Origin: Candidatus Bathyarchaeia archaeon
GTDB lineage: Archaea > Thermoproteota > Bathyarchaeia > Bathyarchaeales > Bathycorpusculaceae
NCBI GenBank assembly: GCA_038882655.1
Contig: JAVZNT010000003.1
Location: 12,411 to 76,410 of the forward strand
DNA: 64,000 bases
Direction: 5' to 3'
The notes under the pieces were generated by a model that had not been told where the DNA came from, ran no database searches, and worked only from the letters and a program-made list of their open reading frames with translations. Positions 7,355 through 49,022 of this stretch are shown here, one piece after another. The position numbers were made by a program, and so were the translations under genes. Numbering within the stretch: position 1 is the stretch's first letter; each line of letters starts with the position of its first letter.

Positions 7355-7394
7355 AACTTTAAACCAGTGTTTTAAATGTGAATAGCTTCAAGAG

Positions 7395-29753: not shown

Positions 29754-29787
29754 TTTCCTATTTCATAAAGGGCATAAATTTAAAATA

Positions 29788-29805
29788 GTATAGCTACAGC
29801 TATAC
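29788..29805. promoter_or_regulatory. 8-2-8 perfect inverted repeat directly after a TATA-like element (candidate operator)
   Basis: GTATAGCT-ac-AGCTATAC is preceded by AAATTTAAAATA (29776-29787) and lies 20 nt upstream of the ATG at 29825. Confidence 0.45.
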
Positions 29806-29824
29806 CATTACACGAGGCTTTAAA

Positions 29825-30574: not shown

Positions 30575-30599
30575 CCTATTAAAATATTTGCTTGAGGCA

Positions 30600-31631: not shown

Positions 31632-31670
31632 ATATGCCTATACCTTTTGAAATATGAATTTCGCTGAAGG

Positions 31671-33682: not shown

Positions 33683-33896
33683 TCACCGGCACCATTTCAA
33701 ACGATTCTCGGTTTTAATGCCCAGTACATCTTTTTAAAGATATAAACTGTACTTTTATGAATAACTTATTTTAGACTTTACTTTAGTATTTAGTGGTTGT
33801 TAAGACCCTGCGAACTTCGTGAATGTGAAGTCGGATTACTTATGCCACGTTGAAGGTTAAAATCATCAGCTTATACAAAAATTAAAGCTCAAAACG

Positions 33897-35027
33897 TTAA
33901 GGCAGCGACTTTTTAAATAGTTGATATATTCCTCCCAAGAGGAATGCCAAGGCTCTTGCGATATCTATTATTGGATAAAGGATTATTCTTCGGTATTTTT
34001 TATCTCTTCTCTTGATGGTCTGATAGCCATAAAAAGCCATAAGCCCAAAAAGTGGAAGCACAAGCGTGACTAGGAGAATTATTTGAGATGTGAAATAACC
34101 AGTTAATAGAATGTGTATTACTAATGCCAAGACTGTTAAACTCCATGTGAGAAAGCTAAGTACGCAGACCAGAAGCCATTTTGAAAATACGCTCTTAATT
34201 CCGAATTTTTTCAACATTAAACCTAAACCTCTTCCATAATTGAAATTTTGCTTCAAAAGCCCCCTTAACGTTGGTCTATGCTTATGCATCACTAAAACCT
34301 CCGGGTCCAAAACCATCTTGTATCCTTCTCTACAGATTCTTTCCACAAGTTCAACTTCGTCAAAACCATACTTAATGTCTTCATCAAACAATCCAACTTT
34401 GTTCAAGACATCACGCTTCAGTCCCATGTTGCAGCCGGCCGGATATTTTTGTGGAGGCTTAATGGAGTCTAATGTTTCTCTTCTTCTAAAAATTCTCATA
34501 ACCGGGATGAAACTTTCATCAGAATATTTGGATAAAAAATTATCATAATACCTGAGAACATTTCCCCCAACGCATCCGACATGCAAATCTCGAAGGTTGT
34601 CGACCATTTTATTTAGCCAGTTCTTTGGTACAATACAATCAGCATCCGTGAAGGCAAGAATTTCTCCAGTACTATTTTTTATGCCGGTATTTCTTGCTGC
34701 ATTTAATCCCGGGCGTTCCTCTAATATGAGTTTAACTGGATACTGTAAAACTATTTCCCTAGTATTATCTGTGGAATTTCCATCTACCACAATAATTTCC
34801 AGACAATTCTTTTCGTAGTTGATTTGCATGAGAGAATCCAAAAGCTCTCTTATATGTGCGGCTCCATTTTTAACAGGAACGATCAATGTAACTTTTGGGT
34901 AATATTTACTCTCTTCACGCAATGGTTGCGCCTTCATTAAATTGGTTTCCTTCTGCAGAATTGTTTTTAAATTTACCGCGTGCTTGAACAACTGTTCATT
35001 TTGAATTTTGCCAGAACTGTTAAACAT
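33897..35027 (-). CDS. family-2 glycosyltransferase with a C-terminal membrane domain
   Basis: TLIVPVKNGAAHI...IIVVDGNSTDNT and AFTDADCIVPKNW. About four C-terminal TM helices. Confidence 0.85.
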   Translation of the reverse strand: MFNSSGKIQNEQLFKHAVNLKTILQKETNLMKAQPLREESKYYPKVTLIVPVKNGAAHIRELLDSLMQINYEKNCLEIIVVDGNSTDNTREIVLQYPVKLILEERPGLNAARNTGIKNSTGEILAFTDADCIVPKNWLNKMVDNLRDLHVGCVGGNVLRYYDNFLSKYSDESFIPVMRIFRRRETLDSIKPPQKYPAGCNMGLKRDVLNKVGLFDEDIKYGFDEVELVERICREGYKMVLDPEVLVMHKHRPTLRGLLKQNFNYGRGLGLMLKKFGIKSVFSKWLLVCVLSFLTWSLTVLALVIHILLTGYFTSQIILLVTLVLPLFGLMAFYGYQTIKRRDKKYRRIILYPIIDIARALAFLLGGIYQLFKKSLP

Positions 35028-35139
35028 ATGCTTTTGCTAACCTTTTAGCCCGCTAATAGTGCTATACGTTTTGTTAAAAGTCTACCTCAAAAGATAAAAG
35101 TTAGCATAAGCTGAAGTGCAGATTTTATCTAGACTCCAG

Positions 35140-35898
35140 TCATGGGTAATCTCTTGAATAGCTAGAGAGAAGTGCTTTTCTGGTTAATATGTAATAGGAG
35201 CCAACAACAAGCCATACGAGAGAAAGTTTAAGGTAGCCATTTTTTTCAAATCTCCTCATTGAAACATAACCCTTCGCGTTGCGAACAAACTTGATTTTTC
35301 CATAATCCCTTAGTTTCAGGGACATGTCCACATCCTCACAGCATGCGTTTTTCTCGGTGAAACCTTCAACTTTTTCGAAAGCAGCCCTTTTAATTGCTAC
35401 GGCTGTTCCCAGTTTTCCGAAACAAGGAGTTTTAGCGTTTCTAAGGATTAGATTTGATAACTCTTCTTTGCTGTATGCCAACCAAGCTTTTAACGCTCTT
35501 TCTTTAGGTAACAGGTCCCCATATGTAGCAATAACTGTTCCATCGCGCAGGTATGGCAAGACGGTGCTAATCCAGTTTGGAGAGAGAGTTATATCTGCAT
35601 CCACAAAGAGAAATACGTCTCCTCGAGCCTCTCTTGCTCCAAGATTTCTTCCCACCGGGATTATGCAGTCTTGAACTATTATTCGGTCAGCATATTGCTT
35701 CGCAATATCAACAGTCTTATCTTTCGAATTTGAATCAACTACAATTATCTCCTTATTGGCATATGTTTGATTCTTTAAAGATCTTAAACAGTCTCCAACG
35801 TAATCTTCTTCGTTACGAGTTGTCACTATTATCGAGACAAGCTCTAACATTCTGTTTTCATTTTGCTTGCTCGGATAATTAAGAATTTTTATGAGCAA
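35140..35898 (-). CDS. family-2 glycosyltransferase (soluble type)
   Basis: VSIIVTTRNEEDYV...IIVVDSNSKDKT and LFVDADITLSPNW. Confidence 0.85.
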   Translation of the reverse strand: MLIKILNYPSKQNENRMLELVSIIVTTRNEEDYVGDCLRSLKNQTYANKEIIVVDSNSKDKTVDIAKQYADRIIVQDCIIPVGRNLGAREARGDVFLFVDADITLSPNWISTVLPYLRDGTVIATYGDLLPKERALKAWLAYSKEELSNLILRNAKTPCFGKLGTAVAIKRAAFEKVEGFTEKNACCEDVDMSLKLRDYGKIKFVRNAKGYVSMRRFEKNGYLKLSLVWLVVGSYYILTRKALLSSYSRDYP

Positions 35899-35987
35899 CT
35901 TAAAAACTTGTTTCTATTTTGGGCAAAATCTGTGGGAAAACCTAAATGCATGTTCGTCTTGATTATCGAGTTGTCAGGTTGGTTGTC

Positions 35988-36362
35988 ATGGCGGAAGAGG
36001 AAGACCCCGTTAAACTCCACAAGGATGGAAATACCCTTTACGAGCTTGGCAAATATGAAGAAGCTAAAGGAAAGTTTTTAAAAGCCTCTGAACTTTACAG
36101 GAAGGCAAATAACTTCTTTGATTCCGCCTATGCGCTTTTCAAGGCTGGTGAATGCGCTTTCATGCTGAAGGACTATGCTGGCGCGGTTGAATATTTCCTG
36201 AAGTCTGCAGAGCTCTCATTTCAAAAGGGCTTTGACAGATTCGGCGTCAGCGCTTTGGAGTATGCCAGAGACTGTTATAAGGCTTTAGACGAAAAAGAGA
36301 AAGTCTCGGAGACTGAGAAGAAGATAAAGGAAGTTAAGGCGAAGCTTGAAGAGTCCTTCTGA
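35988..36362 (+). CDS. small TPR-like helical protein
   Basis: GNTLYELGKYEEAKGKFLKASELYRKANNFFDSAYALFKAGECAFMLKDYAGAVEYFLKSAE. The ATG at 35988 is preferred over the track start at 35946. Confidence 0.6.
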   Translation: MAEEEDPVKLHKDGNTLYELGKYEEAKGKFLKASELYRKANNFFDSAYALFKAGECAFMLKDYAGAVEYFLKSAELSFQKGFDRFGVSALEYARDCYKALDEKEKVSETEKKIKEVKAKLEESF

Positions 36363-36434: not shown

Positions 36435-38162
36435 ATGGCAGTATTAAAGTGTGTTATTATGCCTACATCTTTTAAGGCACTGGCCGAGTTATGCGAGAAA
36501 CTGGAAGGTATGAGTAGGCGTGTTCCAGCAGTAAACCTTGTAGTGGATTTCCTAAAAAGCCTTGAGCCCAGCGAGGTTGAGCCTGCGGTTTCGATGATTT
36601 TGGGGAGACCTTTTCCAACGTGGAGCCAGCAAACTATTGATGTGAGTTGGGCTACTCTAAGCGAGATTATTAGGCGCATTACTGGGGTTAAATGGAGAGT
36701 TTTTCTAGAAGCCTTCAATCAGACTGGCGATGTGGGTTCGGCGGCAAAGGTTGTTTTTGAAAGTTGCAAGGTTAAGCGGCAAGCAGTGCTTTTTGAAAAG
36801 CCTTTAACAATTTTGGAGGTTAGACGGAGTTTTGAAGCTATTGCCGAAACCGTTGGGTATGGTTCTAAGGGGAAAAGGGAACGTTTAATTGAGACCATGC
36901 TAAGTTTGGCTTCCCCTCTTGAGGCAAAATATCTGGTTAAAATATTCATTGGTGAGATGCGAACGGGTTTTTATGAGGGATTGATGGAGCAAGCAGTTTC
37001 AAGGGCTTTCCAGATACCGCTTGAAGCCGTTAAAAGGGCGGGGATGATGCTTGGGGATATTGGCACTGTGGCGGCGCTATTTAAGACTGAGGGTGGGGAG
37101 GCGCTGTCAAAGATTGATTTTCAAGTTTTTAGACCCGTAAAGCTTATGCTGGCTCAGATGGCGAATGATGTGGCTGAGGCGATTAAAGAACATGGTGGGC
37201 GAACAGCTTTTGAGCATAAGCTTGACGGCGCTCGTGTTCAAATTCACAAGCAAGGCAATAATGTGCGAATTTTCAGTCGCAGATTAACAGACGTTACCAA
37301 AAGTTTGCCAGAAATAACCGACATCGTGAAAAGGGAGATTAAAGCCTATAACGCCATTATGGAAGGCGAAGTAATATCCGTAGATGATGAAGGGCACCCA
37401 GTTCCTTTCCAACATCTTATGCGGAGATTTAAAAGAGTTCATGAAATTGAAGACGTGGCCGAAACAATCCCTGTTAAGCTTTACCTTTTCGACATTTTAT
37501 ATCTAGATGGTGAAAGCCTAATATCTTTGCCCTACCTTCAGCGAAGAAAAATTTTGGCTGAAAATGCTGGTGGGATACCTCTAACAAAACAGCTAATTAC
37601 AAACAGCGTTGACGAGGCTGAAAAATTCCTTAAGGAGGCTATTGACTGTGGACATGAGGGACTAATGGCAAAGAGGTTAAACAGCGAATACAAACCCGGA
37701 ATTCGTGGAAAACACTGGTTGAAGATAAAGCCGATCCTTGAACCGTTAGACTTAGCCATTGTTGCCGCAGAGTACGGTTATGGGCGGAGACGCGAATGGC
37801 TTTCAGATTATTATTTGGCTGCTCGCGACGCTGAAACTGGCGAATTTCTAATTGTTGGCAAAACCTTCAAGGGGTTAACAGACTCTGAAATTATCGAGAT
37901 GACCAAGCGCCTAAAAGAACTGACCATAAAAGAAGAGTACCGTAGGGTCTATGTCACTCCAAAAATTGTTGTAGAAGTAGCCTACAACGAAATTCAGAAG
38001 AGCCCAAAATACAAGTGTGGCATGGCACTGCGGTTTGCACGGATAGCCCGCATAAGAGAGGACAAAACACCAGAGGAAATCGACACCATCCAGAGGGTTA
38101 GGGAAATCTATCAGAAACAGTTTTTAAAAAAGGGTAATATAAGACTGCAGAACAGCATTTAA
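36435..38162 (+). CDS. lig: ATP-dependent DNA ligase
   Basis: Adenylation motif I EHKLDGARVQIHK (KxDG). Also FDILYLDG, EGLMAK and WLKIKP. Length is 575 aa. Confidence 0.95.
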   Translation: MAVLKCVIMPTSFKALAELCEKLEGMSRRVPAVNLVVDFLKSLEPSEVEPAVSMILGRPFPTWSQQTIDVSWATLSEIIRRITGVKWRVFLEAFNQTGDVGSAAKVVFESCKVKRQAVLFEKPLTILEVRRSFEAIAETVGYGSKGKRERLIETMLSLASPLEAKYLVKIFIGEMRTGFYEGLMEQAVSRAFQIPLEAVKRAGMMLGDIGTVAALFKTEGGEALSKIDFQVFRPVKLMLAQMANDVAEAIKEHGGRTAFEHKLDGARVQIHKQGNNVRIFSRRLTDVTKSLPEITDIVKREIKAYNAIMEGEVISVDDEGHPVPFQHLMRRFKRVHEIEDVAETIPVKLYLFDILYLDGESLISLPYLQRRKILAENAGGIPLTKQLITNSVDEAEKFLKEAIDCGHEGLMAKRLNSEYKPGIRGKHWLKIKPILEPLDLAIVAAEYGYGRRREWLSDYYLAARDAETGEFLIVGKTFKGLTDSEIIEMTKRLKELTIKEEYRRVYVTPKIVVEVAYNEIQKSPKYKCGMALRFARIARIREDKTPEEIDTIQRVREIYQKQFLKKGNIRLQNSI

Positions 38163-38194
38163 TATGCCTAATTGCCCTATAAGGAAGATTTAAA

Positions 38195-39241
38195 ATGGCG
38201 AAAACACGAAAGCCTCGCATTCCATATGAGGAATTCTATAGCCGGCAACTCGTTATGAAAGAGCTTGGACGCGATGGACAAGAGAAGCTTGCAAGGGCAA
38301 AGGTTGCTGTTGTGGGACTTGGTGGGCTTGGCACGGTTTCCTCGCTTTATTTGGCGCTTGCTGGTGTTGGCTACATACGCCTAATAGACCAAGACACTGT
38401 GGAACCACACAACCTCCACAGACAAGTTTTGTACACGTCAAAGGATTTGCGGTATCCAAAAGCCGAGGTTTCAGCTAAGAGGCTTATGGGGATAACCCCC
38501 TTCGTTAAAGTTGAGGCAATTCCGGAGAACTTAAATGTGGACAACGCTGAAAAACTTTTGAAAAGTGTTGACTGCGTTGTTGACGGCTTAGATAACATGC
38601 GAACACGTTATCTGGTTAATCGCACTTGTATAAAGCTTAAAATTCCATATGTTTTTGGAGCCGCCATAGGAATAGAAGGTAACCTCTCAGTTTTCGTCCC
38701 ACCAGAAACCCCATGCCTAGAATGTATCCTGCCAAACCTTGAAGACAGCAACCTACTAACATGCGACGTTAGAGGAGTTTTAGGCGCAACTCCAGGGATC
38801 ATTGGAACAATGGAAGCCATGGAAACAATAAAACTCTTGACTGGAATAGGCACGCCATTAAAAGGTAAGCTTATGATATGCGACTTCAGCGACATGTACT
38901 TCACAACAATAGACATATACAAAAGGGAAAACTGTCCAGCGTGCCGTGGCGAAGTCACCGCCCAAAAACTAAGGGAAAAGCTTGTATGGCTATGCGGGAG
39001 AAACACTGTCAACATAAACCCAGAAAAACCAACAAGACTCAACCTTGAAAGCCTCTACACAAAAATAAGGCAAATCTTTAAAGTGCGCGTGAAATCTTCA
39101 ATGGCAATAGTCTTCACATACAAAGACTATGAAGTAACACTGTTTAACGGCGGACGCATGCTAATAAAAAACATTAACAACGAAGAAAAAGCCCACAAGA
39201 TCTACAGAGAAATAGCCCAAAAAATAGGATTAAACCAATAA
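38195..39241 (+). CDS. ThiF/MoeB/HesA-family E1-like adenylyltransferase with an extra C-terminal domain of about 95 aa
   Basis: VAVVGLGGLGTVSSLYLALAGVGYIRLIDQDTVEPHNLHRQ. Zinc motifs CLEC and CPAC. Cys loop TCDVRGVLG. The C-terminal domain VWLCGRNTV...VTLFNGGRMLIKNINNEEKAHKIY is unassigned. Confidence 0.8.
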   Translation: MAKTRKPRIPYEEFYSRQLVMKELGRDGQEKLARAKVAVVGLGGLGTVSSLYLALAGVGYIRLIDQDTVEPHNLHRQVLYTSKDLRYPKAEVSAKRLMGITPFVKVEAIPENLNVDNAEKLLKSVDCVVDGLDNMRTRYLVNRTCIKLKIPYVFGAAIGIEGNLSVFVPPETPCLECILPNLEDSNLLTCDVRGVLGATPGIIGTMEAMETIKLLTGIGTPLKGKLMICDFSDMYFTTIDIYKRENCPACRGEVTAQKLREKLVWLCGRNTVNINPEKPTRLNLESLYTKIRQIFKVRVKSSMAIVFTYKDYEVTLFNGGRMLIKNINNEEKAHKIYREIAQKIGLNQ

Positions 39242-39280
39242 AACCTTTATTTGCACGTTAACAAAACTCTATTTAAAAAT

Positions 39281-39353
39281 GCCGGGGTGGCCGAACGGTT
39301 CAGGCGGCTGCCTGCAGAGCAGCTATATGTGGGTTCAACTCCCACCCCCGGCT
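39281..39353 (+). tRNA. tRNA-Cys (GCA)
   Basis: Cloverleaf folded by hand. Acceptor GCCGGGG/CCCCGGC, anticodon stem GCTGC/GCAGC with loop CTGCAGA (anticodon GCA, G37), T arm GTGGG-TTCAACT-CCCAC, discriminator U73. No intron and no encoded CCA. Confidence 0.9.
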
Positions 39354-39361
39354 CTGCACTG
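39332..39361 (+). repeat. tRNA-Cys 3' end plus 8 nt of downstream flank (copy 1 of a degenerate direct repeat, candidate att site)
   Basis: GGTTCAACTCCCACCCCCGGCTCTGCACTG. A partial second copy lies at 44253-44279. Confidence 0.5.
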
Positions 39362-39368
39362 AAGCAAC

Positions 39369-39527
39369 TCACTTAAGTTTCCTGAAGAACTTTGCTCCAT
39401 TATGGTCACAAACATATTCAAAACCAGCCTCTACGAGCTCCGTTATCTTCTCATTCGAAGTTGCGACTTTACAAATGTAATCATCTTTGTGTTTCCAAAG
39501 TTTAAAATTGTGTATATTAGTGTGTTC
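39369..39527 (-). pseudogene. start-less 52-codon remnant of a protein C-terminus abutting the tRNA-Cys 3' end
   Basis: The minus-strand frame reads EHTNIHNFKLWKHKDDYICKVATSNEKITELVEAGFEYVCDHNGAKFFRKLK-stop. It is bounded upstream by an in-frame TAA and has no start codon. The stop lies 16 nt from the tRNA end. Confidence 0.45.
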
Positions 39528-39682
39528 TTAATGTTTTTGCGGTACTCTAAAGTGGTGTTCCGATGTTTAAAAGCAGCATTGATGTCGTTAAAGGGAGGCG
39601 CATTAGGAAGTCTTCTTTAAAGTCTAATCGGTTAGGGAAAGCTTTTCTAAAAGCATGCGCACTGTTTATATGGTCTGTCAGC

Positions 39683-42600
39683 ATGCCTGAGGGCTTGAAG
39701 GTTGAGCGTTTTCTTCGTCAAGCGGAAAAAATGGAAGGAAAGTATGAGTGGCTGGAAGCTGCTGAGTCCTACAAGAAAGCGTTGAGTCTGTTGCCGCCAC
39801 GCGAATTTCTTAAGGTAGGCGACGTGTACGAGCATATAAGCTATGCTTTTTATCGAGCAGCAATGCAATCTGGGAGTTTAAACGAATTTAGGAGCAGGAT
39901 GAGCCAAGCTGTTGTTAATTGCGAGCGGGCAAGAGCTTCATATGCTAAGCTGAGCACTGCCAAAAGATTACCTCTGATGCTTCGTTGCGATGCCATGGTC
40001 GCATTGGCACATTATTGGCTTGGGTCTTCAGTGTCGGAAAGAAAAAAGCATGCGGATGAATGTTGGCAATTGACAATAAAAGCTCTCGAATTATTCAAGG
40101 AGTCTTCAAACGCTAGAGAATATGGCTTAACTTACAACAGGTTCACAACAAGCGTTCTTTTTGGGTTCTTTGCAGAATGGGATTATGAGACCCGAAGAAA
40201 AAAAGCTACAGAAGCTATAGAAAGCGGAGAGCAGGCAGTTAAGTTTCTTTCCACACGTGGCAATTCTCGCGAGTTAACAACAGCCCTTGTTAAGGTTGCA
40301 AGTTTTCGGGAAATGTTTGGTTTCTATTTCCTTGATTTAGAGGCGAGGAAAGAAGAGTATCAGAGAGCTTTAGACTGTTGGCTTAGAGCTAACGAGCTTT
40401 CTGAAGAAACAGCTTACCATGAATTATTGAATTCTTTTGCCATGGTGATGCTTGAAAACCCTGAATGGGAGTGGGGAACAGAAAAAACGCTTGCGAATAT
40501 TAAGAAAGCGTTGAACTACAGTAAAAAAGCGAGAGATAATCTAACAATCGGGCTTGCACTCGATTGGTTGGGTTTTCATGCTCTTTTCAATGCAGAAACA
40601 TGTGAAGATCCAAAACGTAGGGTTGAACTTACTAAGAAGGCCTTGCAATATGCCGAAGATGCTAAACGTAACTATTCGCGGGTTTGCTTCATCAGTCCAC
40701 TTTGGGGTCCTTTGTGGGTGGAATCTCCTCTTGCTGGCTTCTATTTCGACCTTGCTGCTTGTGCAACGAATCTTAACGAAAGACGCGATTTATTAGAAAA
40801 AGCCAGAGATGCATCAATGGAGTTGCTGAATTGTGCTTATGCGTCTACGTATCCAGAAGTCATAATGTATGCACATCATGTGTTCAGCGATGTTTTATTC
40901 TCATTTGCTCATATGGAAACCAATCCTGACAAGAGGCAGCAGCTCCTAGAAGAAGCTATGACACATTCAGATGAGACTGTCAGGATAATCGAGCAGTTTA
41001 TCCCCTATTACTATTGGAAACGTGGTAAGATGCAGAATTCCTTGGCAGACATCAAGTCTGAACTGTCTGATTTGTATAAAGATTTTGAAGTTAAAAAGAG
41101 TTTACTTGAGGAAGCTGTGATGGGGAAAGAAAGAACGGTGAAACTTGTTGCAAAGTATGTGAACTTCTGGGAAGGCATAGGGCCTATTCCACCATTGGTC
41201 GCCAATTTGGCAGAATGGCAATTCCAATACGGAGTCTTGCTAAGTCGCCTCGGCGAGTTCACAAAAAACATTGAATATCTGAAAAAAGCTGCCAAAACCT
41301 TTGAAGAAGCTGCAGCGTCCTTCATGAAGCTTAACCTATTCAGTTACATAGCTCAGTGCTACTGGAAAAAAGGGCAAACCTCCGATGCGTTAGAAGATTA
41401 CTTGACGGCTGCAGCAGATTTTGATACAGCTTCAAAGTATTTCAGAAGAGCCTCAAAGACAATTCCTCAACTGTCACAATTCTATCAAGACTACGCTCGT
41501 TACATGCATGCATGGGCTGAGATTGAAAAAGCCAGACACAACCACAAAACACAGGATTATGAGTCAGCCCGGGAGCATTTCAAGAAAGCTTCCAAAATTC
41601 ATAGGCTGTCGAAGCAATGGAGTTACCTTGCTCTAAACTATGAAGCTTGGGCAGAACTGGAAAGCGCTGAGGCTTTGAGCACAAGAGAGCAAAGTGAAAA
41701 AGCCCTCAAAACTTTCACAAATGCCATTGCAATGTTTAATGAGACGAAAAATTCTCTTCAAGCCCAGCTAAGCAGGATTAAAGATAGAGATGAAATCCAA
41801 ATGGTCGCAAGCATTATTAAAGCCGCATCGTTCAGAACAAAATACTGCAGAGGAAGAATGGCCATAGAAGAAGCAAAGATTCTCGACAGAAAAGGCGACC
41901 ATTATTCTAGCTCGGAAAAATACAGTTCAGCCGCAGAAAATTTTGAAAAAATAATTCAAAATATGGAATCAGAACACTATCGGAACGAACTTGAATTCAT
42001 TTTAATTCTTTGCCGAGCTTGGCAAAAAATGACGAAAGCTGAAGCGGAAGTTTCCCCTTCGTTGTATATGGAGGCGTCAGAGTTGTTTGAACAAGCGAAA
42101 GAGTTTAGCGTAGACGAAAGGTCCAAAATGCTGGCGTTGGGGCATAGTCACTTCTGCAAGGCGCTTGCATCAGGAACAAAATTCGTGGACACAAGAGACA
42201 AACGCCTCTACGCTGTCACTTTACAACACCTAGAAATCGCCTCCAACTACTATCTTAAGGCAGGTTTCAAAAACGCTGTAGAGTACGGAAAAGGCATTGA
42301 ACTGCTTTTCGAGGCTTATATATACATTAACACCGCTAAGAAAGAGAGAGAACCTGAGAAAAAAGTCAAACTTTTCATGATGGCTAAGAAAATTCTGGAA
42401 TCTTCTGCTGAATCATTTCTGAAGGCGAGGCACTTTGAAAAAAGAGAGCAAGTGCTCAAGTTGATCGAAAAAGTGGCGGAAGAACGGACATTAGCTCTTT
42501 CTCTCACCGAGACATTGCATGCTCCAGCTATTATTACGGCTGCATCTACTTTTCCCACTCCAAGTCCAACCAACGAAAAAGCTGTAGGCTTAGAACAATT

Positions 42601-43306
42601 TGAACACGCCAACATACAAGCCTATTTGGTTGCACCCAGAGAAGTAGAGGTTGGAGAGACGTTTGAAGTTAGACTGGATATGACAAATGTCGGCAAAGAG
42701 CCCGGGTTGCTTGTTAGAATTGAGGACCTTGTTTCGTCTGTTCTGAAGATTTCTGGAACTATACCAAAATACAATTTTGATGAAAGCTCGATAGATGTGA
42801 AGGGCAAGCAACTTGAACCTCAGAGAATCGAATCCATCCTTCTTCAAGTCACAGCATTAGGAAGCGGCATCACGCATCTGAGTCCAAAAATAGTCTACAT
42901 TGATAGCCGCGGCAACTTTAAGACGTGTCAAGCCAAACCGACCACATTAACAATTTATCCGATTGGCAAATTTCAGTTTAGAACAGTCAACGCACAAAAA
43001 GTATTTGACTATTTAGCTAAAGCCTTCTCTGACGATTATATGAGAAAGCGGATGCCATTGGAAAAGTCAGGTTGGAGAACGCTCATGCAAATTGTGAAAA
43101 ATGCGCATGTATCAAAGTCAAGTATATACGGCACAGGAGTTCATCGTGGAGTAGGCATGACTGAACTGGAAAGACGAGGCGTCGTTGAAGTCAGAATCTT
43201 CCCAGAAGAAAGAGGAAGAGGCGGAAAAATCACTAAAGCACGCATAGCTTATGAGAGAGATGTGGTAAAGAGGTACATTGACCAGCAGGTTATGAAAATA
43301 AAGTAA
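39683..43306 (+). CDS. very large helical-repeat (TPR-like) protein with a C-terminal Ig-like beta-sandwich and a winged-helix-like domain
   Basis: About 1000 aa of helical hairpins roughly 40 aa each (for example AQCYWKKGQTSDALEDYLTAAADFDTASKYFRRASK). Then VAPREVEVGETFEVRLDMTNVGKEPG...TTLTIYP (beta-sandwich-like). Then WRTLMQIVKNAHVSKSSIYGTG...MTELERRGVVEVRIFPEERGRGGKITKARI (wHTH-like). The ATG at 39683 (MPEGLKVERF) is preferred over the track start at 39563. Confidence 0.75.
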   Translation: MPEGLKVERFLRQAEKMEGKYEWLEAAESYKKALSLLPPREFLKVGDVYEHISYAFYRAAMQSGSLNEFRSRMSQAVVNCERARASYAKLSTAKRLPLMLRCDAMVALAHYWLGSSVSERKKHADECWQLTIKALELFKESSNAREYGLTYNRFTTSVLFGFFAEWDYETRRKKATEAIESGEQAVKFLSTRGNSRELTTALVKVASFREMFGFYFLDLEARKEEYQRALDCWLRANELSEETAYHELLNSFAMVMLENPEWEWGTEKTLANIKKALNYSKKARDNLTIGLALDWLGFHALFNAETCEDPKRRVELTKKALQYAEDAKRNYSRVCFISPLWGPLWVESPLAGFYFDLAACATNLNERRDLLEKARDASMELLNCAYASTYPEVIMYAHHVFSDVLFSFAHMETNPDKRQQLLEEAMTHSDETVRIIEQFIPYYYWKRGKMQNSLADIKSELSDLYKDFEVKKSLLEEAVMGKERTVKLVAKYVNFWEGIGPIPPLVANLAEWQFQYGVLLSRLGEFTKNIEYLKKAAKTFEEAAASFMKLNLFSYIAQCYWKKGQTSDALEDYLTAAADFDTASKYFRRASKTIPQLSQFYQDYARYMHAWAEIEKARHNHKTQDYESAREHFKKASKIHRLSKQWSYLALNYEAWAELESAEALSTREQSEKALKTFTNAIAMFNETKNSLQAQLSRIKDRDEIQMVASIIKAASFRTKYCRGRMAIEEAKILDRKGDHYSSSEKYSSAAENFEKIIQNMESEHYRNELEFILILCRAWQKMTKAEAEVSPSLYMEASELFEQAKEFSVDERSKMLALGHSHFCKALASGTKFVDTRDKRLYAVTLQHLEIASNYYLKAGFKNAVEYGKGIELLFEAYIYINTAKKEREPEKKVKLFMMAKKILESSAESFLKARHFEKREQVLKLIEKVAEERTLALSLTETLHAPAIITAASTFPTPSPTNEKAVGLEQFEHANIQAYLVAPREVEVGETFEVRLDMTNVGKEPGLLVRIEDLVSSVLKISGTIPKYNFDESSIDVKGKQLEPQRIESILLQVTALGSGITHLSPKIVYIDSRGNFKTCQAKPTTLTIYPIGKFQFRTVNAQKVFDYLAKAFSDDYMRKRMPLEKSGWRTLMQIVKNAHVSKSSIYGTGVHRGVGMTELERRGVVEVRIFPEERGRGGKITKARIAYERDVVKRYIDQQVMKIK

Positions 43307-43528
43307 AAATAAAGGTGAACATTCCAGCGCTAAAATGCTGTAATCTCAAAGCCCCAAGTAAATTTGCAGTTTTCAGCTTTGAATCAAGATCCTCCATTCA
43401 AATAGCCATGAAATGACCTGTTTATTATCAAAATAGGCGTTTTTTTACCTTGCATAACATGCAAAAATGCTCTACTATTTTTCCTTCTTTTAAATTAAAT
43501 CAGAAACGGGAAAAGGAGGTGGGATGAT

Positions 43529-44041
43529 ATGAAAGGAAAAATATTACTAGTCATACCCGTTGCACTCTTAGCATTGTCAATTATTCCAGCGAAGGCGGCT
43601 CCTACTTGGTACAATAAAGCTGAAATGGAAATAACAGGCTTTACGTTTATGGGACCTGATCCAGGGGGAAGAGGTCTCCTATTTGATGTAACTTTTGTTG
43701 GAGTTGCTGCTGGACCTAACATCAAAGAGGCAACTGTGGAGGGAGTAGATCATCTTCTCATGGACTGGGAAGGAATTGGCCATTTAGATGTGTACTTGAC
43801 GGATACCGACAAACAAGGTGAAAAAATTTCAGCGCATATTACTGGACTCGCTGTGACCAAGACGCCTGGCCGCATTGTTTTTGAAAATGCACAGGCAACT
43901 GTCATCAACACGGCTGGTTATCCTACTACTGGCAAGTATACTGACCTGATTGGCACCACTTTCAATGTTGAAGGCTTTATTACAGAACTCTCCATCAACC
44001 CTCCAAGTGGGTATATACACGCTAAGTGGTGCTGGACCTAA
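43529..44041 (+). CDS. hypothetical secreted beta-rich protein
   Basis: GGAGGTG lies 7 nt upstream of the ATG. Signal-peptide-like MKGKILLVIPVALLALSIIPAKA. I recognise no family. Confidence 0.65.
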   Translation: MKGKILLVIPVALLALSIIPAKAAPTWYNKAEMEITGFTFMGPDPGGRGLLFDVTFVGVAAGPNIKEATVEGVDHLLMDWEGIGHLDVYLTDTDKQGEKISAHITGLAVTKTPGRIVFENAQATVINTAGYPTTGKYTDLIGTTFNVEGFITELSINPPSGYIHAKWCWT

Positions 44042-44252
44042 ATGAAAAGCCATTCAAATTGGCTTTCCTCCTTTTTAAACGACGCTGAATACAGAGAGGT
44101 GAATTGTTCAAAAAGAACGAAGTATATGTCGAAATTCCGTTCTACTTTCTATAAATCCAGCATAATCCACATTCAAACAGGATGTCTAATCCTGAAATTT
44201 CACTCTTAAAAAGAAAAATGGAAGTTTGCGGGAGATGTCTCCACGCGTTGAT

Positions 44253-44279
44253 GGTTCAACTCCCCCCAACTCTACACTG
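44253..44279 (+). repeat. degenerate second copy of the tRNA-Cys 3' end and flank (candidate distal att site)
   Basis: GGTTCAACTCCCCCCAACTCTACACTG. The first 12 nt are identical to the tRNA T-loop/stem, and CTCT-CACTG matches the flank CTCTGCACTG at 9 of 10 positions. Confidence 0.45.
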
Positions 44280-44406
44280 CTACCCAAATACGAAAGAAGC
44301 TTACCAGTGGTTTCGGCAAAATGTCCATCTTTAACATTTAGGGATAGAATTTTCTTACATAAACGTTTTATGATTAAACATTGAATGTGAAGCGGTGACA
44401 TGAGCT

Positions 44407-45780
44407 TTGGAATATAAATGCTATTGTGGCGCGACCCTGAAATGTTCGCATGATGGAAACTGGTTCTGTCCAAATGGACACCCAGTATACACTTGTAAAA
44501 AATGCGAAGCGCTTGGAAAGAATACTCCACTTCAATGGGTTTCGCAGTATCAACGATGGTATTGTTATGAATGCAGGGAATATGCTTCAAAATCAGTTGC
44601 GGAAGAAAAAATAGAAGAGGAAGAGGAGGTAGGCGGGGAAGAAGAGGAGTTTCTCGACGAAGAAGAATTTCTTGAAGAGGAAGAAGAAGTCGAAGTAAGC
44701 GGCTACATACTCGGCATACCTAGAGGCAGTAGAGTTGACGAATTCTGTTTCATGTGCAAACATCTGAAATTCACACAAAATAATACGCACATCAAATGTG
44801 GTATGAACATCCCCAGATTCTTGGAACCAGCGATTTCAGAGGTCACCATAAGACCAACAGGCGCAGGCAAGGGGATAAGCGGTATATGCGCTCAAGCATC
44901 TTTCATCTCCGACGAGGACGCCCTATTAACTCTTCAAGAATGGCGAGAATTCATTGAGAAAATAGTTGAAAAGCAGATAGAAAATCACGAAGATGAAGCT
45001 GAACCCATCGAAATGTACCGAATTGAATTCGTCGGCGCAACCACCGCAGATGGAGGTGCAAACGCCACCAAGGTACCTGTAAGTCGCGACAGCATTGTTG
45101 GTGGCCGAATCACTGTGACAATTGACAGCGAAAATGAGAAAGTTTGGATTCATGCTGGAACTAAAAAGTCCGGTTTTCTGAGCGGCTTTGCAAAGGTTAT
45201 AGGAGGCATTGCCGGCTCCATGGAAGACTGTTTCAGTGCGCGATTTCTGAGGGATCTACTAAAACGGGATATAGAATCGTTTAGCGTTGAGAAAATATGG
45301 GCTGGAGAGGAGCCTCTGGAGTTTTGGCAGGTTTTGGATAGAGGCGCAAGAGAGCTATCTAGTCAGGCATCTGAGCATGTGTTAGAACAACCTAAATTTG
45401 AAGGTCCTAAGATAGAAATGTACCTGTTAAAGTATCACATGGGAAGGGCATACGGTGAATATTATACTGGAGGCAGAAGTGATAGCGAAACAAAATCAAT
45501 AACTATCGAGCCATTAAAAGCATCCGTTGAAGAACTTCAGTCAAAACGCATGGTAATCGTCATAGATCACCAAGCAAAAATTGTTTGGCACTGGATAGGA
45601 GACAAAAGTGCACGCCTAATGAAGTTCTTCGTAAAAAGAATACCCTCAGATGGACAGTCACGGAGGCATCATTTAGGCATTATTGGAAGTCGAATAGGGC
45701 AAAGCATAGACGATTATGACTATGTCGTAGTCGAAGAGAAAAAGGAACCAGAACAGTTCAAGAGGCTTTTCCAAGCTTAA
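44407..45780 (+). CDS. hypothetical protein: N-terminal zinc ribbons, poly-Glu linker, unknown domain, and two tandem gelsolin-like repeats
   Basis: TTG start immediately after an in-frame TGA. CKKCEALG...RWYCYECREY ribbon. Residues 66-96 are almost pure E. An internal duplication covers aa 200-311 and 335-457, with IEMY..., (T/V)ID...K(V/I)W.H.G.K.S and EEPLEFWQVL / KEPEQFKRLF motifs. Confidence 0.7.
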   Translation: MEYKCYCGATLKCSHDGNWFCPNGHPVYTCKKCEALGKNTPLQWVSQYQRWYCYECREYASKSVAEEKIEEEEEVGGEEEEFLDEEEFLEEEEEVEVSGYILGIPRGSRVDEFCFMCKHLKFTQNNTHIKCGMNIPRFLEPAISEVTIRPTGAGKGISGICAQASFISDEDALLTLQEWREFIEKIVEKQIENHEDEAEPIEMYRIEFVGATTADGGANATKVPVSRDSIVGGRITVTIDSENEKVWIHAGTKKSGFLSGFAKVIGGIAGSMEDCFSARFLRDLLKRDIESFSVEKIWAGEEPLEFWQVLDRGARELSSQASEHVLEQPKFEGPKIEMYLLKYHMGRAYGEYYTGGRSDSETKSITIEPLKASVEELQSKRMVIVIDHQAKIVWHWIGDKSARLMKFFVKRIPSDGQSRRHHLGIIGSRIGQSIDDYDYVVVEEKKEPEQFKRLFQA

Positions 45781-45794
45781 TGTCTGGGAATTAA

Positions 45795-46646
45795 ATGAAT
45801 GTTGAGGCCATCACATTCCTTGCAATTAGCACAATCTACTGGGTACTTGCACTGCGTTATTATTATGGCGTTTCTAAAGAACTGAGTCAGTATGCGCAAA
45901 AACCTCTAAAATCACCTAAAACTAGGACACTCATTATCGCTATTTACGGTTTCGGGCTAACATTATCTTTCGCGCTTGTGGGCCTAAACTCGAAATCAAT
46001 CCTGCTGTCAGCCCTTCGAGGAGGCGCCCCTATTTCAGCTTTCTTTATAATCCTTCTTTCTTTTTTAAGCCCAATTATCAATTATCTTTCTGTTTGCATT
46101 CAAGCTACGAATAGTGTTAATACTATTTTTCTATCCTCTAGCTTTCTGTTGGCAGTTGCTTCCGGCATAGCCATCCTTATTCCCTTCGGCTATGTCCTAT
46201 ATAAAACTCGAAAAGAAATAGAGATGCGCTTTCAAATGGCTACAGGTGGAATGCCTAAAAAACTGCGTGGAGATTTTAAAATGTACAGAACATCTCATGG
46301 AAAGCCGGTTACACGAGGCATATTTGGAGGGCTTATGGGCTTGATTATGTTTCCTTGGTATTTGTACTTTGATTTATTCAAAGCTAAGCAAGGCCTCGTT
46401 GTATATAGAAAAGCGACAACAACCGAATACGACTGGACTTTCGTTGATTCGTCCCATCCTCCGCCCTTTTATGTTAGAGATGAGAGATTAGAGGTGGATA
46501 TAGGAGAGGCGCTCGCTAAAACAGACAAAAGAACTATAAATCATGCCGGCGTCCCTATTTGCCCAAAATGCAAAAAGGCGCTCATCTACTTAGAAGACCA
46601 TCAAAAATGGTGGTGTACCAAGTGCAAAAGAGCCTATATAGAATAA
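45795..46646 (+). CDS. hypothetical membrane protein with a C-terminal zinc ribbon
   Basis: Four or more N-terminal TM helices, one further hydrophobic segment, then CPKCKKALIYLEDHQKWWCTKCKRAY at the extreme C-terminus. Starts 14 nt after the upstream gene. Confidence 0.7.
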   Translation: MNVEAITFLAISTIYWVLALRYYYGVSKELSQYAQKPLKSPKTRTLIIAIYGFGLTLSFALVGLNSKSILLSALRGGAPISAFFIILLSFLSPIINYLSVCIQATNSVNTIFLSSSFLLAVASGIAILIPFGYVLYKTRKEIEMRFQMATGGMPKKLRGDFKMYRTSHGKPVTRGIFGGLMGLIMFPWYLYFDLFKAKQGLVVYRKATTTEYDWTFVDSSHPPPFYVRDERLEVDIGEALAKTDKRTINHAGVPICPKCKKALIYLEDHQKWWCTKCKRAYIE

Positions 46647-46709
46647 TAGAGAGAAATAAGCGATTTTGCGGTATATCACGTAGCAGTAAGTTCACTTTTC
46701 AAGCCGGTG

Positions 46710-48110
46710 CTAAGTGCTTTTGATGACCGCTTTTGCCCAGCTTCCATATTTTATCCAGAGTATGGCTATCATTCCGCTTATAATGTTGCTTATTGCTATG
46801 GCTAGCCAAATCCCTATAGAGCCCATGTCGAGAATGAAAGCCATGAGATAGCCTGCGGCTATCCTTATTCCCCAAAGCCTCACCATTCCCAAGCCCGTTG
46901 GAAATGTTGTGTGTCCCGAACCCCTCCCAACTGATAGGGCTACGGCGAAAAGTCCAAAGAATGGAAGCGTGGGAAGCATTGTTTGGAGGAAAATGTCTGT
47001 CTCATTTACTGTGTTAGGATCATCTGCGAAGACGTCCACTAAGTTTCTCCTAACTGGGTATACTATGGCGGCACTTATCATCATTAGGGCGAATATGAGG
47101 AGGGTTGCTTTAAAGGCTACTTCTCTGGCTCTTTTATGGTTGTCCGCGCCGAGACTTTGCCCTATCATTATGGCCGGGGCTCCACTTAAACCCCAAAGCG
47201 CAGCATCCACAATATCCATCATTACAAAACCTATAGAAAAGGCGGTTGCGGTTACGATTCCAAGCATGTTGACAAGTCTAAGCTGCATGAGAAAGGCGAA
47301 ACCATTTGTTAAGCCAAGCGTTAAAATTGGCAGCCCTATACGTAAAACCAAGCGAGCCCATGTGACGTCTATTTCCTTAGTTGGTCTTATATGGAGCTCT
47401 GGGTAGTATTTTCTCAAAATGTATGTTAGGGCTGTTATTGATATTATTTTTCCCATAACATCTGTTAGGGCTGCTCCGACTACTCCGAGTCTTGGAATGG
47501 GTCCTATACCTAAAATAAGGAACGGGTCTAAGGCTATGTTTATGGCGACAGATATGACATTAACAATTGCTGGTCTTCTTGTGTCTCCCACGCTTTGGAG
47601 AATCGTCGTATATGTTAGGGCTATGTAGTTGAAAAACACGTCGAAGACTATTACGCCAGAATACCTCATAACATCCTCAAAAATTTCTGTGGGTGTGGAC
47701 ACAACAACTGTAAAAATCGAATTTCTAAGTGCCAAAAGGAGCATGCTTAAGGCACCACCAGATATTAGGGACAGCGTAAAGAAGCGTGATGCTGACATAC
47801 TTGCTTCCTTGTAGGCTTTGCTTCCCACATACTGTGAGATTACGCTTAGACTTGCTGTGGTGATGGCGTTTGCAAGGGCTTGAAAAAGCATTAGAATGGG
47901 CCAAATCTGTCTAGGAACAGCCACAGCTTGTTCGCTGTAGTTGCTAAGCCAATAAGTGTCAGCCACGTTGTAAGTTACAACCACAAGTTGGTTTACAAGG
48001 GGAGGGGTTCCCAACCAAAAAATTGTGCGAATAATGGGGCCGTCAATAATTTTATCCCTGTACTTGCTTATTCCACTAGGCTCTAGTGGGCTTTCAGAGT
48101 CTTCAGCCAT
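46710..48110 (-). CDS. MATE-family efflux transporter
   Basis: 466 aa with 12 predicted TM helices. MATE-like N-terminal TPPLVNQLVVVTYNVADTYWL. Confidence 0.85.
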   Translation of the reverse strand: MAEDSESPLEPSGISKYRDKIIDGPIIRTIFWLGTPPLVNQLVVVTYNVADTYWLSNYSEQAVAVPRQIWPILMLFQALANAITTASLSVISQYVGSKAYKEASMSASRFFTLSLISGGALSMLLLALRNSIFTVVVSTPTEIFEDVMRYSGVIVFDVFFNYIALTYTTILQSVGDTRRPAIVNVISVAINIALDPFLILGIGPIPRLGVVGAALTDVMGKIISITALTYILRKYYPELHIRPTKEIDVTWARLVLRIGLPILTLGLTNGFAFLMQLRLVNMLGIVTATAFSIGFVMMDIVDAALWGLSGAPAIMIGQSLGADNHKRAREVAFKATLLIFALMMISAAIVYPVRRNLVDVFADDPNTVNETDIFLQTMLPTLPFFGLFAVALSVGRGSGHTTFPTGLGMVRLWGIRIAAGYLMAFILDMGSIGIWLAIAISNIISGMIAILWIKYGSWAKAVIKST

Positions 48111-48161
48111 AGGCTTCCCTTTACGTTGAAAATGAATTCTTAAAAGCTTTTCCTAAAATTT

Positions 48162-49022
48162 TCAGAAATATTCAAGAATTTTTGAAGAGATGGGCCTGTG
48201 GAACTTTCTTTTCACCCTTTCAATAGGCTCTCCGACAACTTCTATGTTTTCCAGTCGGCATGTTCCAAGTCCCTTTTTCTCCGCCAAAACCAGATGCTTA
48301 ACTTTCGTTGGCGAAACTCCCATAACAGCAGCACCAACAGTGTCAACAGCCACAGGGTCTGCGCCTGCTATAACCAAATCCATTTTTACAGGATTTCCAC
48401 TCGTTTCATGTCCTTCTCCAGCTATTATTCCATCAATAACCGTTAGGCTTGGCTTTAGTACGGAAGTCAAGTCCACAATGTTCGCGTGAAGTCTACCGTT
48501 GTGCATGCTTCCTTTGGAGGCGAGGGCTCCCATCATGTTCTTTATTCCAAGCGTGACTGTGGCGAGCCTATGAAGTTTCAGCTTTGGAACACTTATTATT
48601 ACGCTTTCTAGGGCTGTTTTTGCTACCTTAACCTTTCTTAGAGCCAAAGGATTTGACGGATAAACCTCAACGAAAATGTCCTTGTTGAGGTCGACAAGTT
48701 TCACTTTCCATTTTTCGCTTACTTTGTCTAACTCAGCAACTTTGAAGGCTTCAAACGTGTCTGCCCAACCGCTTCCCTCACCAATAACGATGTCGTCTTT
48801 ATCATGCTCTTTAAGAAATTTAACAACCCCTTCCACCACCCTGCCGTCTGTTGTGATTCCAGTTGAAGGGTGCTGAGCTGTTATGTAATTCGGCTTTATG
48901 AGAATGGGCTTTTTTGCGGAAAGAATGGCGTCTAAATCCGACTTTACTGCTTCAAGCGCTCTAACAGTTGTTTCTATGGGGTCTGAGCCTTTAATTATGG
49001 CTACTTGGCTAATTTTACTCAT
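48162..49022 (-). CDS. DUF362 domain protein
   Basis: ILIKPNYITAQHPSTGITTDGRVVEGVVKFLKEH...IVIGEGSG pattern typical of DUF362. Confidence 0.7.
   Translation of the reverse strand: MSKISQVAIIKGSDPIETTVRALEAVKSDLDAILSAKKPILIKPNYITAQHPSTGITTDGRVVEGVVKFLKEHDKDDIVIGEGSGWADTFEAFKVAELDKVSEKWKVKLVDLNKDIFVEVYPSNPLALRKVKVAKTALESVIISVPKLKLHRLATVTLGIKNMMGALASKGSMHNGRLHANIVDLTSVLKPSLTVIDGIIAGEGHETSGNPVKMDLVIAGADPVAVDTVGAAVMGVSPTKVKHLVLAEKKGLGTCRLENIEVVGEPIERVKRKFHRPISSKILEYF

Follow-up and report, generated by a model that had tools for sequence, protein, structure and literature searches.

Archaeal integrative elements with tyrosine integrases (XerA/SSV/pNOB8-like) target tRNA genes. They show an intact tRNA gene at one attachment site (attL), a partial 3′ copy as the other (attR), an integrase gene that abuts attL, and relatives with the empty site. 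The same arrangement, in decayed form, was found in a stretch of 64,000 nucleotides (nt) from Candidatus Bathyarchaeia archaeon (assembly GCA_038882655.1, contig JAVZNT010000003.1, positions 12,411 to 76,410 of the forward strand), which is called the window here and on which all coordinates without a locus name are counted. Past the gene for tRNA-Cys, four consecutive open reading frames (ORFs) lie on the plus strand, O1 (39683-43306, 1207 amino acids (aa)), O2 (43529-44041, 170 aa), O3 (44407-45780, 457 aa) and O4 (45795-46646, 283 aa), with intergenic gaps of 222, 365 and 14 nt. An earlier, sequence-only reading had given these ORFs and gaps correctly, and had taken the four genes for one block that might hold one undescribed system. 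The block was shown to be a mosaic, consisting of a fossil element in tRNA-Cys (an integrase stump, O1, a palindrome and O2) and a resident O3-O4 operon. The best overall explanation, which we regard as probable, was that the four-gene block is the composite of one integration event.

Two further groups of described systems touch the genes of this block. Archaeal gelsolins have been reported for Asgard lineages (PMC7444086, PMC9433394, PMC12993045, PMC13037920), and a crenactin-like actin for a single-cell genome of a Bathyarchaeota (Miscellaneous Crenarchaeotic Group, MCG) (PMC4571567). No description of Bathyarchaeial gelsolins was found in the limited literature searched, which is not proof of novelty. 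Bacterial regulators of the MalT/LAL and SARP/AfsR types combine an NTPase, TPR repeats and a (winged) helix-turn-helix domain, and O1 is compared with them below. Unlike the described tRNA-targeting elements, the element of the window is tiny (about 4.9 kb), carries no replication or virion genes, has only a stump of an integrase and is without relatives in IMG/VR viral contigs. Its integrase family is also distinguished by a C-terminal extension of about 40 aa (..EAGFEY....G.K.FRKRK).

A fossil element in tRNA-Cys and a resident O3-O4 operon

The integration target was the intact tRNA-Cys gene (GCA anticodon; 39281-39354, plus strand), which was identified by ARAGORN and Rfam (RF00005, 60.7 bits). 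The attL site (39332-39361, plus strand; GGTTCAACTCCCACCCCCGGCTCTGCACTG) comprises its T-arm, its acceptor 3′ end and 7 further nt. In local alignment, 23-24 of 27 aligned positions matched between attL and the segment 44253-44279, with one 3-nt gap. This segment is attR (plus strand; GGTTCAACTCCCCCCAACTCTACACTG), a degenerate copy of the tRNA-Cys 3′ end and the right end of the insertion. Apart from itself, the tRNA 3′ region had no better match in the whole window on both strands, and the score of this one was reached by only 2 of 300 shuffles, so the tRNA-derived repeat that had been noticed earlier is real. The region of about 4.9 kb between approximately 39355 and 44279 is thus a decayed integrative element in the 3′ end of tRNA-Cys, with O1 and O2 as its cargo and with O3 and O4 outside it.

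The gene remnant that had also been noticed earlier proved to be the last ~80 codons of a tyrosine integrase (39372-39598, minus strand), identified by six-frame translation and tblastn. It reads ..KNIKNTLIYT.. and then, after a frameshift, ..ELVEAGFEYVCDHNGAKFFRKLK*, with a stop also upstream. The remnant matched a fragment in locus L011 (tblastn, E=6e-9), fragments in L002, L003, L004 and L005, and the C-termini of full-length 330-aa proteins in L003 and L065. A profile of the full-length L003/L065 proteins matched archaeal XerA-type tyrosine recombinases (4a8e, E=1.7e-9), and the XerA-like homology of the remnant was established indirectly, via these full-length relatives. Pfam gave nothing on the remnant or on the minus-strand ORF spanning attR, and phage and plasmid collections contained no tblastn match to the remnant. 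A functional integrase gene is not present in the element, in which about 80 frameshifted C-terminal codons are left. An SSV-type split integrase was considered for the remnant and rejected, given that its natural stop lies 18 nt from the tRNA and that the att site is not inside it. An element of about 4.9 kb entered the tRNA-Cys 3′ end and duplicated approximately 27-30 nt as attL and attR. Its tyrosine integrase was afterwards reduced to the 80-codon frameshifted stump, which makes the element an immobile fossil with O1 and O2 as its remaining cargo.

The empty site was found in a close relative. Contigs L090/L091, which are 88% identical to the window over 44253-46908, start with the tRNA-Cys 3′ end, of which 29 of 30 nt agree with 39329-39358. 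The region upstream of O3 comes immediately after it, and then O3, O4 and the 3′ end of the MATE transporter gene that follows O4; the attL sequence is present once in these contigs. Public contigs in runs X3, X13 and X14 showed the joint from 39355 to 44300, with 4944 nt skipped, and the depth in run X7 was 24-40x over O3-O4 versus 0-3x over O1-O2. The occupied site is also real, since contigs of run X1 that are identical to the window span the attL junction, at about 7-10x. In runs X1 and X7 the flanks (38000-39363 and 46525-48200) were covered at 300-1450x (at least 85% identity) and the block (39364-46524) at no more than 40x, and hot-spring contigs turned into unlike sequence right past position 39353. 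The site downstream of tRNA-Cys is a population-level variable spot. The suspicion of an accessory stretch was thus well founded, with O1-O2 a discrete insertion at tRNA-Cys and the abundant hot-spring relatives diverging right after the tRNA.

The same cargo was met at another tRNA. In L011, O1-O2 were present at 93.8% identity, and homology to the window was restricted to 39537-44246. The left side of this locus has a different tRNA 3′ end (T-loop CAAATCC versus CAACTCC) and a different, better-preserved integrase stump, and the right side has a T-arm-like sequence with its own CAAATCC variant. Since these ends differ from those of the window, the O1-O2 cargo stands there behind another integrase/att module. 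L084, a more distant metagenome-assembled genome (MAG), was syntenic with the window through a small TPR protein, the ligase (72%), the E1-like gene (72%) and tRNA-Cys; synteny broke exactly at the tRNA end, and O1-O2 were absent after it. When copies of O1 were compared by form (see below), 7 of 14 long-form copies had integrase fragments within 4 kb, versus 2 of 67 short-form copies (p=3e-5). Around the other long-form loci L001, L002, L004, L023 and L024 no convincing att-like repeats were found.

The reversed direction, in which O1-O2 were ancestral at the site and the empty relatives lost them by deletion between the repeats, is improbable. Direct repeats are able to mediate deletion as well as to mark insertion, and with a dead integrase the event cannot be timed. 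However, a tRNA 3′ end and its partial copy, with an integrase stump beside attL, are the signature of site-specific integration, and both the absence of O1-O2 from the more distant L084 and their presence at a different tRNA in L011 argue against loss. In either direction, insertion or loss, O1-O2 are a discrete unit apart from O3-O4.

O3 and O4 were shown to be a separate resident operon that travels as a pair to other neighbourhoods. The two genes were adjacent in 8 of 8 distinct loci (the window, L090/91, L010, L005/6, L007/92, L008/9, L093 and L094) from five unrelated neighbourhoods, with O4 14-24 nt past O3. They lie directly downstream of tRNA-Cys in relatives without the insertion, and in L090/L091 O4 still has MATE as its neighbour. 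O1 and O2 were absent from all other O3-O4 loci, and the 78 genome loci that were fetched with the O1 family, some of which have two copies, contained neither O3 nor O4 within 10 kb. Given the empty site in a close relative and no co-occurrence elsewhere, the position of O1-O2 beside O3-O4 is a juxtaposition created by the integration event. That all four genes form one undescribed system or operon-like island, for which their shared direction between the same flanks, the lack of any known family and the uniformly low depth of 39364-46524 in run X1 (7-10x versus 300-1200x in the flanks) could be cited, has next to no chance of being right in view of these counts, of the 88% relative in which tRNA-Cys leads directly into O3-O4-MATE, of L011 in which O1-O2 are bracketed by their own tRNA-like ends without O3, and of the location of attR between O2 and O3.

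The other claims of the sequence-only reading fared better than that of one system, which fell on co-occurrence. The flanks had been recognised correctly (Pfam, ARAGORN, Rfam), with a ThiF/E1-like gene (38195-39241; Pfam, 3.4e-76) and tRNA-Cys on the left and a convergent MatE transporter (46710-48110, minus strand; Pfam MatE, 4.4e-41), which lies outside both units, on the right. It was right as well that none of the four genes belongs to a standard housekeeping family, as no match of O1-O4 reached a curated threshold in Pfam, NCBIfam, PADLOC or PHROGs. The term orphan did not hold for O1, with at least 229 homologues, and held in part for O3 and O4, with 27 and 21. The guesses on single products were good: a scaffold with a winged helix-turn-helix for O1 (TPR/SNAP-like solenoid, beta-sandwich and probable winged helix), secretion for O2 (signal peptide), a gelsolin-like zinc-ribbon protein for O3 (profile match and Foldseek) and a membrane zinc-ribbon protein for O4 (alignment, AlphaFold2 (AF2) model and hydropathy). 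The functions that we infer for O1-O4 are weighed in the following sections.

Among the relatives of the integrase stump, full-length XerA-like integrases were located at 7277-8269 (minus strand) in L003 with tRNA-Pro at 8213-8283, at 6876-7886 (minus strand) in L065 with tRNA-Arg at 7832-7904, and at 16747-17230 in L047 with tRNA-Arg at 16729-16807. Unlike the arrangement in the window, it is the 5′ end of these relatives that overlaps a tRNA gene; the integrases of L003, L065 and L047 start antisense inside the tRNA gene, covering about 55 nt of its 5′ part. This geometry recalls SSV-type integrases, in which att lies within the integrase ORF; the stump of the window instead has its 3′ end facing the tRNA 3′ end. 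Integrase C-terminal fragments of strikingly similar size were seen as small ORFs in L001 (4682-4918, 78 aa), L004 (7344-7529, 61 aa) and L005 (1766-1999, 77 aa), and more of them in L002 (6008-6121) and L011 (63-290) and at 39372-39598 of the window. These recurring fragments of about 60-80 aa consist of the box II Tyr and the ..EAGFEY....G.K.FRKRK tail, and one showed a weak F-93 winged-helix match. They are either uniform decay products or a retained mini-gene.

O3 and O4, a gelsolin-type candidate and its membrane partner

O3 starts at a TTG, the first start codon past an in-frame TGA. The context of this start is kept in the 88%-identical L090 DNA, and P0121, the 90%-identical O3 homologue encoded by L090, starts at the same residue (alignment A3). 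According to this alignment and the AF2 model, O3 consists of a double zinc-ribbon head (residues 1-60), an acidic disordered linker (63-93), a Cys-cluster domain (~100-165), a long helix (170-197) and two gelsolin-homology domains (~198-320 and ~335-457). Among 5.8 billion clusters 27 homologues of O3 were found, and no record was found for the exact O3 sequence.

The fold supported the gelsolin-like character of O3, and the sequence supported it weakly. The AF2 model (predicted local distance difference test (pLDDT) 77.4, predicted template modelling score (pTM) 0.65; domains mostly 75-92 pLDDT) agreed with the gelsolin/ADF-type alpha-beta fold, in which a mixed sheet lies between a long and a short helix. 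The Foldseek search of PDB with this model gave 58 matches at E≤1e-3, the best with E=6.4e-10 over about 260 columns, and the top 50 were all gelsolin, adseverin, villin, CapG, fragmin or Asgard 2DGel, with no Sec23/24 among them. The O3-family profile had one meaningful match among PDB sequences, the Thorarchaeota gelsolin-like protein 7c2f_B (E=6e-4, domain 2 only). The single O3 sequence matched a gelsolin domain with E=0.089, and domain 1 was undetected by sequence. In the profile alignment, an IDH..W.W.G motif was common to O3 and known gelsolin, and the EP..F motif of O3 is shared with known gelsolin repeats. Searched against 1.84 billion representatives, the O3-family profile recovered about 8 proteins with the gelsolin part and one other protein (P0234).

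Compared with the Asgard gelsolins (ProGel/2DGel from Thorarchaeota and Loki/Heimdall lineages; 7c2f, 7c2g, 7c2h and 7whf), the only PDB family matched by sequence, O3 likewise appears to have two tandem gelsolin-homology domains and has the (V/I)IDH..K..(Y/W).W.G motif around the central strand in common with them. Unlike them, O3 is Bathyarchaeial and too divergent for the Pfam Gelsolin model, its actin binding is a prediction, and it adds the 60-aa double zinc-ribbon head, the acidic linker, the Cys-cluster domain and an operon partner that is a membrane protein. With eukaryotic gelsolin, villin, adseverin and CapG, O3 would share the same fold in tandem and C-terminal ..EG.EP..F-type motifs (alignment A3), and it differs from them in having two domains rather than three or six, in an identity of 11-17%, in other N-terminal modules and in the membrane partner.

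This partner, O4, has four hydrophobic helices by hydropathy (~3-31, 41-63, 69-107 and 114-150). It also has a basic juxtamembrane segment that is conserved, a small beta domain and, at its C-terminus, an invariant Cys4 zinc ribbon (C256/C259/C274/C277; alignments A2 and A7). Judging by contigs of equal length, its 21 homologues were on the same contigs as the O3 homologues. The AF2 model of O4 (pLDDT 77.1, pTM 0.71) gave no fold match in PDB (best E 0.8). The existing gene call P0151 (165 aa) covers 58% of the ORF and missed the membrane half, and the homologues support the length of 283 aa.

For the pair, the function that we would tentatively propose, at somewhat less than even chance, is that of a membrane-associated gelsolin-type module acting on an actin-family filament. 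The two gelsolin-homology domains of O3 would bind, cap or sever the filament, O4 would tether or position this activity at the membrane, and the related zinc ribbons of the two proteins would be their likely contact. Several findings weigh against this proposal. The Pfam Gelsolin model (PF00626) gave no match to O3 even at E≤0.1, and the global template modelling scores in the fold search were low (0.17-0.37), which is attributed to the two O3 domains being oriented differently from those of gelsolins. About 90 further matches of the O3-family profile were obtained, and those checked matched the N-terminal zinc-ribbon head only; one protein with such a head, P0173, has no O4 neighbour. The topology of O4 is ambiguous, as the positive-inside rule and a cytoplasmic zinc ribbon conflict in a model with four transmembrane helices, and its zinc ribbon aligned weakly to residues 27-59 of O3 (hhalign, E=0.0012, probability 19%). 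No actin gene was found near any O3-O4 locus. Ten large ORFs of the window were also scanned and none was an actin; they encode thiolase, HypD, SecY, glycosyltransferases, an AIR-synthase-related protein, HisRS, MFS, Fe-ADH and IF-2B. Contigs from libraries labelled metatranscriptomic spanned O3-O4 continuously, and these libraries may contain DNA. Among raw RNA reads (X15), 4 matching reads were found.

The main rival to an action on actin is a generic zinc-ribbon-headed adaptor. In this alternative, which is a serious possibility though a little short of an even chance, O3 would be unrelated to actin and one of several adaptors with such a head, and O3-O4 would be a membrane-associated adaptor pair with another client. 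The head of O3 (44407-44586; MDY.C.CGA..........W.CP.GH.VY.CK.CEA.GKS.PLQWI.QYQRWYCYEC.QYA) recurs nearly identically at the N-termini of differing proteins, among them TPR (P0173 and P0174), ankyrin (P0178) and unknown-domain (P0175 and P0177) proteins, which suggests that it may be a portable docking module. The gelsolin fold, like TPR and ankyrin, would then be a generic protein-binding module; the missing actin gene and the divergence from the Pfam model point the same way. Gelsolin/ADF folds also serve purposes other than actin binding, as in Sec23/24, and this was counted for the adaptor. Against the adaptor, the top 50 structural matches of O3 were all bona fide actin-binding members of the gelsolin family, including Asgard 2DGel-actin complexes, and its sole sequence-profile match in PDB was the Thorarchaeota ProGel. 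A constant association of the O3-type head with a neighbouring O4-like gene was considered as well and was ruled out by P0173; the contigs of P0175 were too short to judge.

Shorter paralogues of O3, 226-244 aa long and corresponding to its residues ~100-310 (the Cys-cluster and the first gelsolin-like domain), were seen in L096-L102 (for example L097 4128-4862 and L100 5992-6672) and as P0169 and P0170. They have neither the zinc-ribbon head nor an O4 neighbour, and are located beside genes of secreted proteins.

The O1 family, its palindrome and O2

The O1 reading frame is open already from 39563, and the start was put at the ATG at 39683 because homologues, including the 93% one in L011, begin at the corresponding position. 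At least 229 full-length homologues with 44-93% identity were found, and 169 stretches in species-representative genomes of GTDB matched the family, almost all of them from Bathyarchaeia. The family is multicopy, with at least five copies in SPRUCE 53, four in MFD04408.bin.2.62 and three in bin42. O1 was divided into a TPR/SNAP-like alpha-solenoid (residues ~1-940), a DUF11/TRAP-beta-like beta-sandwich (~965-1090) and a C-terminal winged-helix-like tail (1097-1207; nt 42971-43303). The long alpha-solenoid followed by an Ig-like beta-sandwich was deduced from Pfam matches across 23 members of the family (TPR_12 in 9, SNAP in 9, TRAP_beta in 9, BatD in 3 and DUF11 in 1), and Pfam gave no match on the tail. 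Three forms of the family occur, a short form of ~1095 aa without the tail, a long form of ~1200 aa with a 110-aa tail, to which O1 belongs, and forms with a KaiC-like ATPase. About 200 nt past a long-form gene there is usually a gene for a signal-peptide protein, whose family differs between loci.

Further arrangements were often seen among the tail-less members. A C-terminal ATPase of the KaiC/DUF7504 type is present in P0005, in P0009 and at 9986-13921 of L084, and a standalone KaiC-like gene follows family members in L084 (14252-15031), L039 and L067. The KaiC-linked copy in L084 lies about 3.3 kb from the orthologous tRNA-Cys and is convergent to it. Two short-form paralogues, 48% and 44% identical to O1, stand in tandem about 1.3 kb apart in L012 (10001-13288 and 14631-17939; = L049), and are consistent with local duplication driving the expansion of the family.

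A palindrome (43463-43482, plus strand; AAAAATGCTCTACTATTTTT) was found 157 nt past the O1 stop and 47 nt before the ATG of O2. In the alignment of the intergenic regions downstream of O1 (alignment A9), the consensus of its family was GCAAAAATGCCTACCTATTTTTCC, a 20-bp AAAAAT-N8-ATTTTT palindrome. The next start codon, with GGAGGTG in front of it, comes about 45-55 nt later. Every long-form member is followed by the palindrome, and the ORF downstream of the palindrome varies between loci. Its distribution was determined by a census with the regular expression AAAAAT-N7-9-TATTT[AT]T over 1.54 Mb of fetched loci and the window, on both strands (about 3 Mb of strand). The 19 matches all adjoined long-form O1 genes, with none elsewhere: 14 were at 119-256 nt 3′ of a long-form gene, 4 were the same palindromes on the other strand, and the remaining one was 260 nt upstream of a long-form gene in L026. 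None of 68 short-form, tail-less copies had the palindrome (Fisher p=4.5e-14, long versus short form), and slight variants were seen in L001/L002 and L028. The pattern had been derived from seven of the census loci, so the census is partly circular; independent of this derivation are the long-form loci L003, L019, L023, L024, L026, L055, L082 and L083 and the absence elsewhere. The association of the palindrome with the winged-helix-like tail is a correlation, and the palindrome is a predicted operator or promoter.

On this basis O1 is proposed as a cytoplasmic regulator of the one-component style. The TPR/SNAP-like solenoid and the beta-sandwich would be its sensing or scaffolding part, and the C-terminal winged helix would bind the 20-bp palindrome, within or beside the promoter of the next gene, and would thereby control that gene, here the secreted protein O2. 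That the tail binds the palindrome and that O1 controls O2 are given an even chance. Like the bacterial regulators of the MalT/LAL and SARP/AfsR types, O1 has a long TPR-type sensor region and a DNA-binding-type domain and adjoins its presumed target gene with a palindromic site between, and its paralogues pair with a KaiC-like P-loop ATPase. Unlike them, O1 has no NTPase, its HTH is C-terminal after a beta-sandwich, and its family is archaeal; this is a likeness without demonstrated homology, in which DNA binding by O1 is predicted.

Two points tell against the regulator: the best PDB match of the O1-tail profile, the winged-helix domain of Orc1/Cdc6 (2qby_B), was weak (E=0.05), and the palindrome may be just an unusually conserved promoter (TFB recognition element (BRE)/TATA) inherited with the gene. 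In the corresponding alternative, which we consider unlikely, the palindrome would be no more than a conserved promoter, and O1, instead of being a transcription factor, would serve as TPR-based sensor or scaffold in a conflict or signalling system that works with KaiC-like ATPases. This alternative would accommodate the KaiC-like ATPases, which stand at the C-terminus instead of or after the tail or as a separate gene downstream, as well as the several copies per genome and the integrase fragments near long-form O1. Nevertheless, PADLOC and PHROGs gave no match to O1, O1 itself has no NTPase or effector domain, and the palindrome strictly tracks the winged-helix-like tail, as the 68 tail-less copies without it illustrate.

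O2, the presumed target of a regulatory O1, has an N-terminal signal peptide (MKGKILLVIPVALLALSIIPAKA|AP) and a Shine-Dalgarno sequence, GGAGGTG, 8 nt upstream. Its copy in L011 is 94% identical, and no other relatives were found in about 1.5 Mb of fetched loci. Its 90% cluster has 3 members, one of which is labelled Candidatus Bathyarchaeota archaeon. PDB gave no match, and Pfam gave only a weak one to DUF3237 (E=0.011). Homology of O2 with the secreted proteins that follow other long-form O1 genes was rejected, as BLASTP matched the signal peptide only and hhalign gave a probability of 5%; by sequence comparison these proteins appear to be positional analogues only. A hairpin (AAAGCCA-TTCAAAT-TGGCTTT, followed by CCTCCTTTTT) was observed at 44042-44080, directly 3′ of the O2 stop, and is plausible as a terminator inside the element, before attR.

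The surrounding chromosome and the meaning of the locus

The window is ordinary archaeal chromosome, with SecY, HisRS, HypD, DNA ligase and IF-2B present, and the G+C content of the four-gene block is not deviant. Homologues of O1 and the closest matches to the flanking E1 and ligase genes were in MAGs labelled Candidatus Bathyarchaeia/Bathyarchaeota, and DNA near-identical to the window was found in hot-spring metagenomes only. The PADLOC defence models gave no match for O1, O2 or O3, and O4 had one 16-bit zinc-ribbon match there (candidate PDC-S64). Relatives of O1 and O3 were absent from IMG/VR viral contigs, and PHROGs gave no meaningful match for the two. A second variable region is located at 30574-35946, where two GT2 glycosyltransferases are among the genes between an AIR-synthase-related gene and a small TPR protein. 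This region has no counterpart in the syntenic L084, in which the homologues of 28350-30574 abut the small TPR protein and the ligase. The small protein (35946-36362, 138 aa), upstream of the DNA ligase, is TPR/SNAP-like with a weak HEPN match too, and is 71% conserved in L084.

Our work indicated that a run of unknown genes with one orientation next to a tRNA can turn out to be a mosaic and not a system. Two things make this locus interesting, its divergent gelsolin operon and the O1 subfamily that is linked to the palindrome. Among the multicopy families of Bathyarchaeia that are still uncharacterised, that of O1 is one of the larger, and the strict link between its tail and the palindrome would offer a first testable handle on the function of this family. 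For O3-O4, it is doubtful but conceivable that Bathyarchaeia (TACK/Thermoproteota) have a gelsolin-type regulator of crenactin-like filaments that is tethered to the membrane by a dedicated partner. If true, regulated actin dynamics and a link between membrane and actin would exist outside Asgard archaea and eukaryotes, and the gelsolin domain would predate the Asgard lineage or would have moved between archaeal phyla. The O3-O4 pair is concrete and clonable, and with it one can test whether the regulation of actin goes back further, or extends more widely, than the Asgard archaea.

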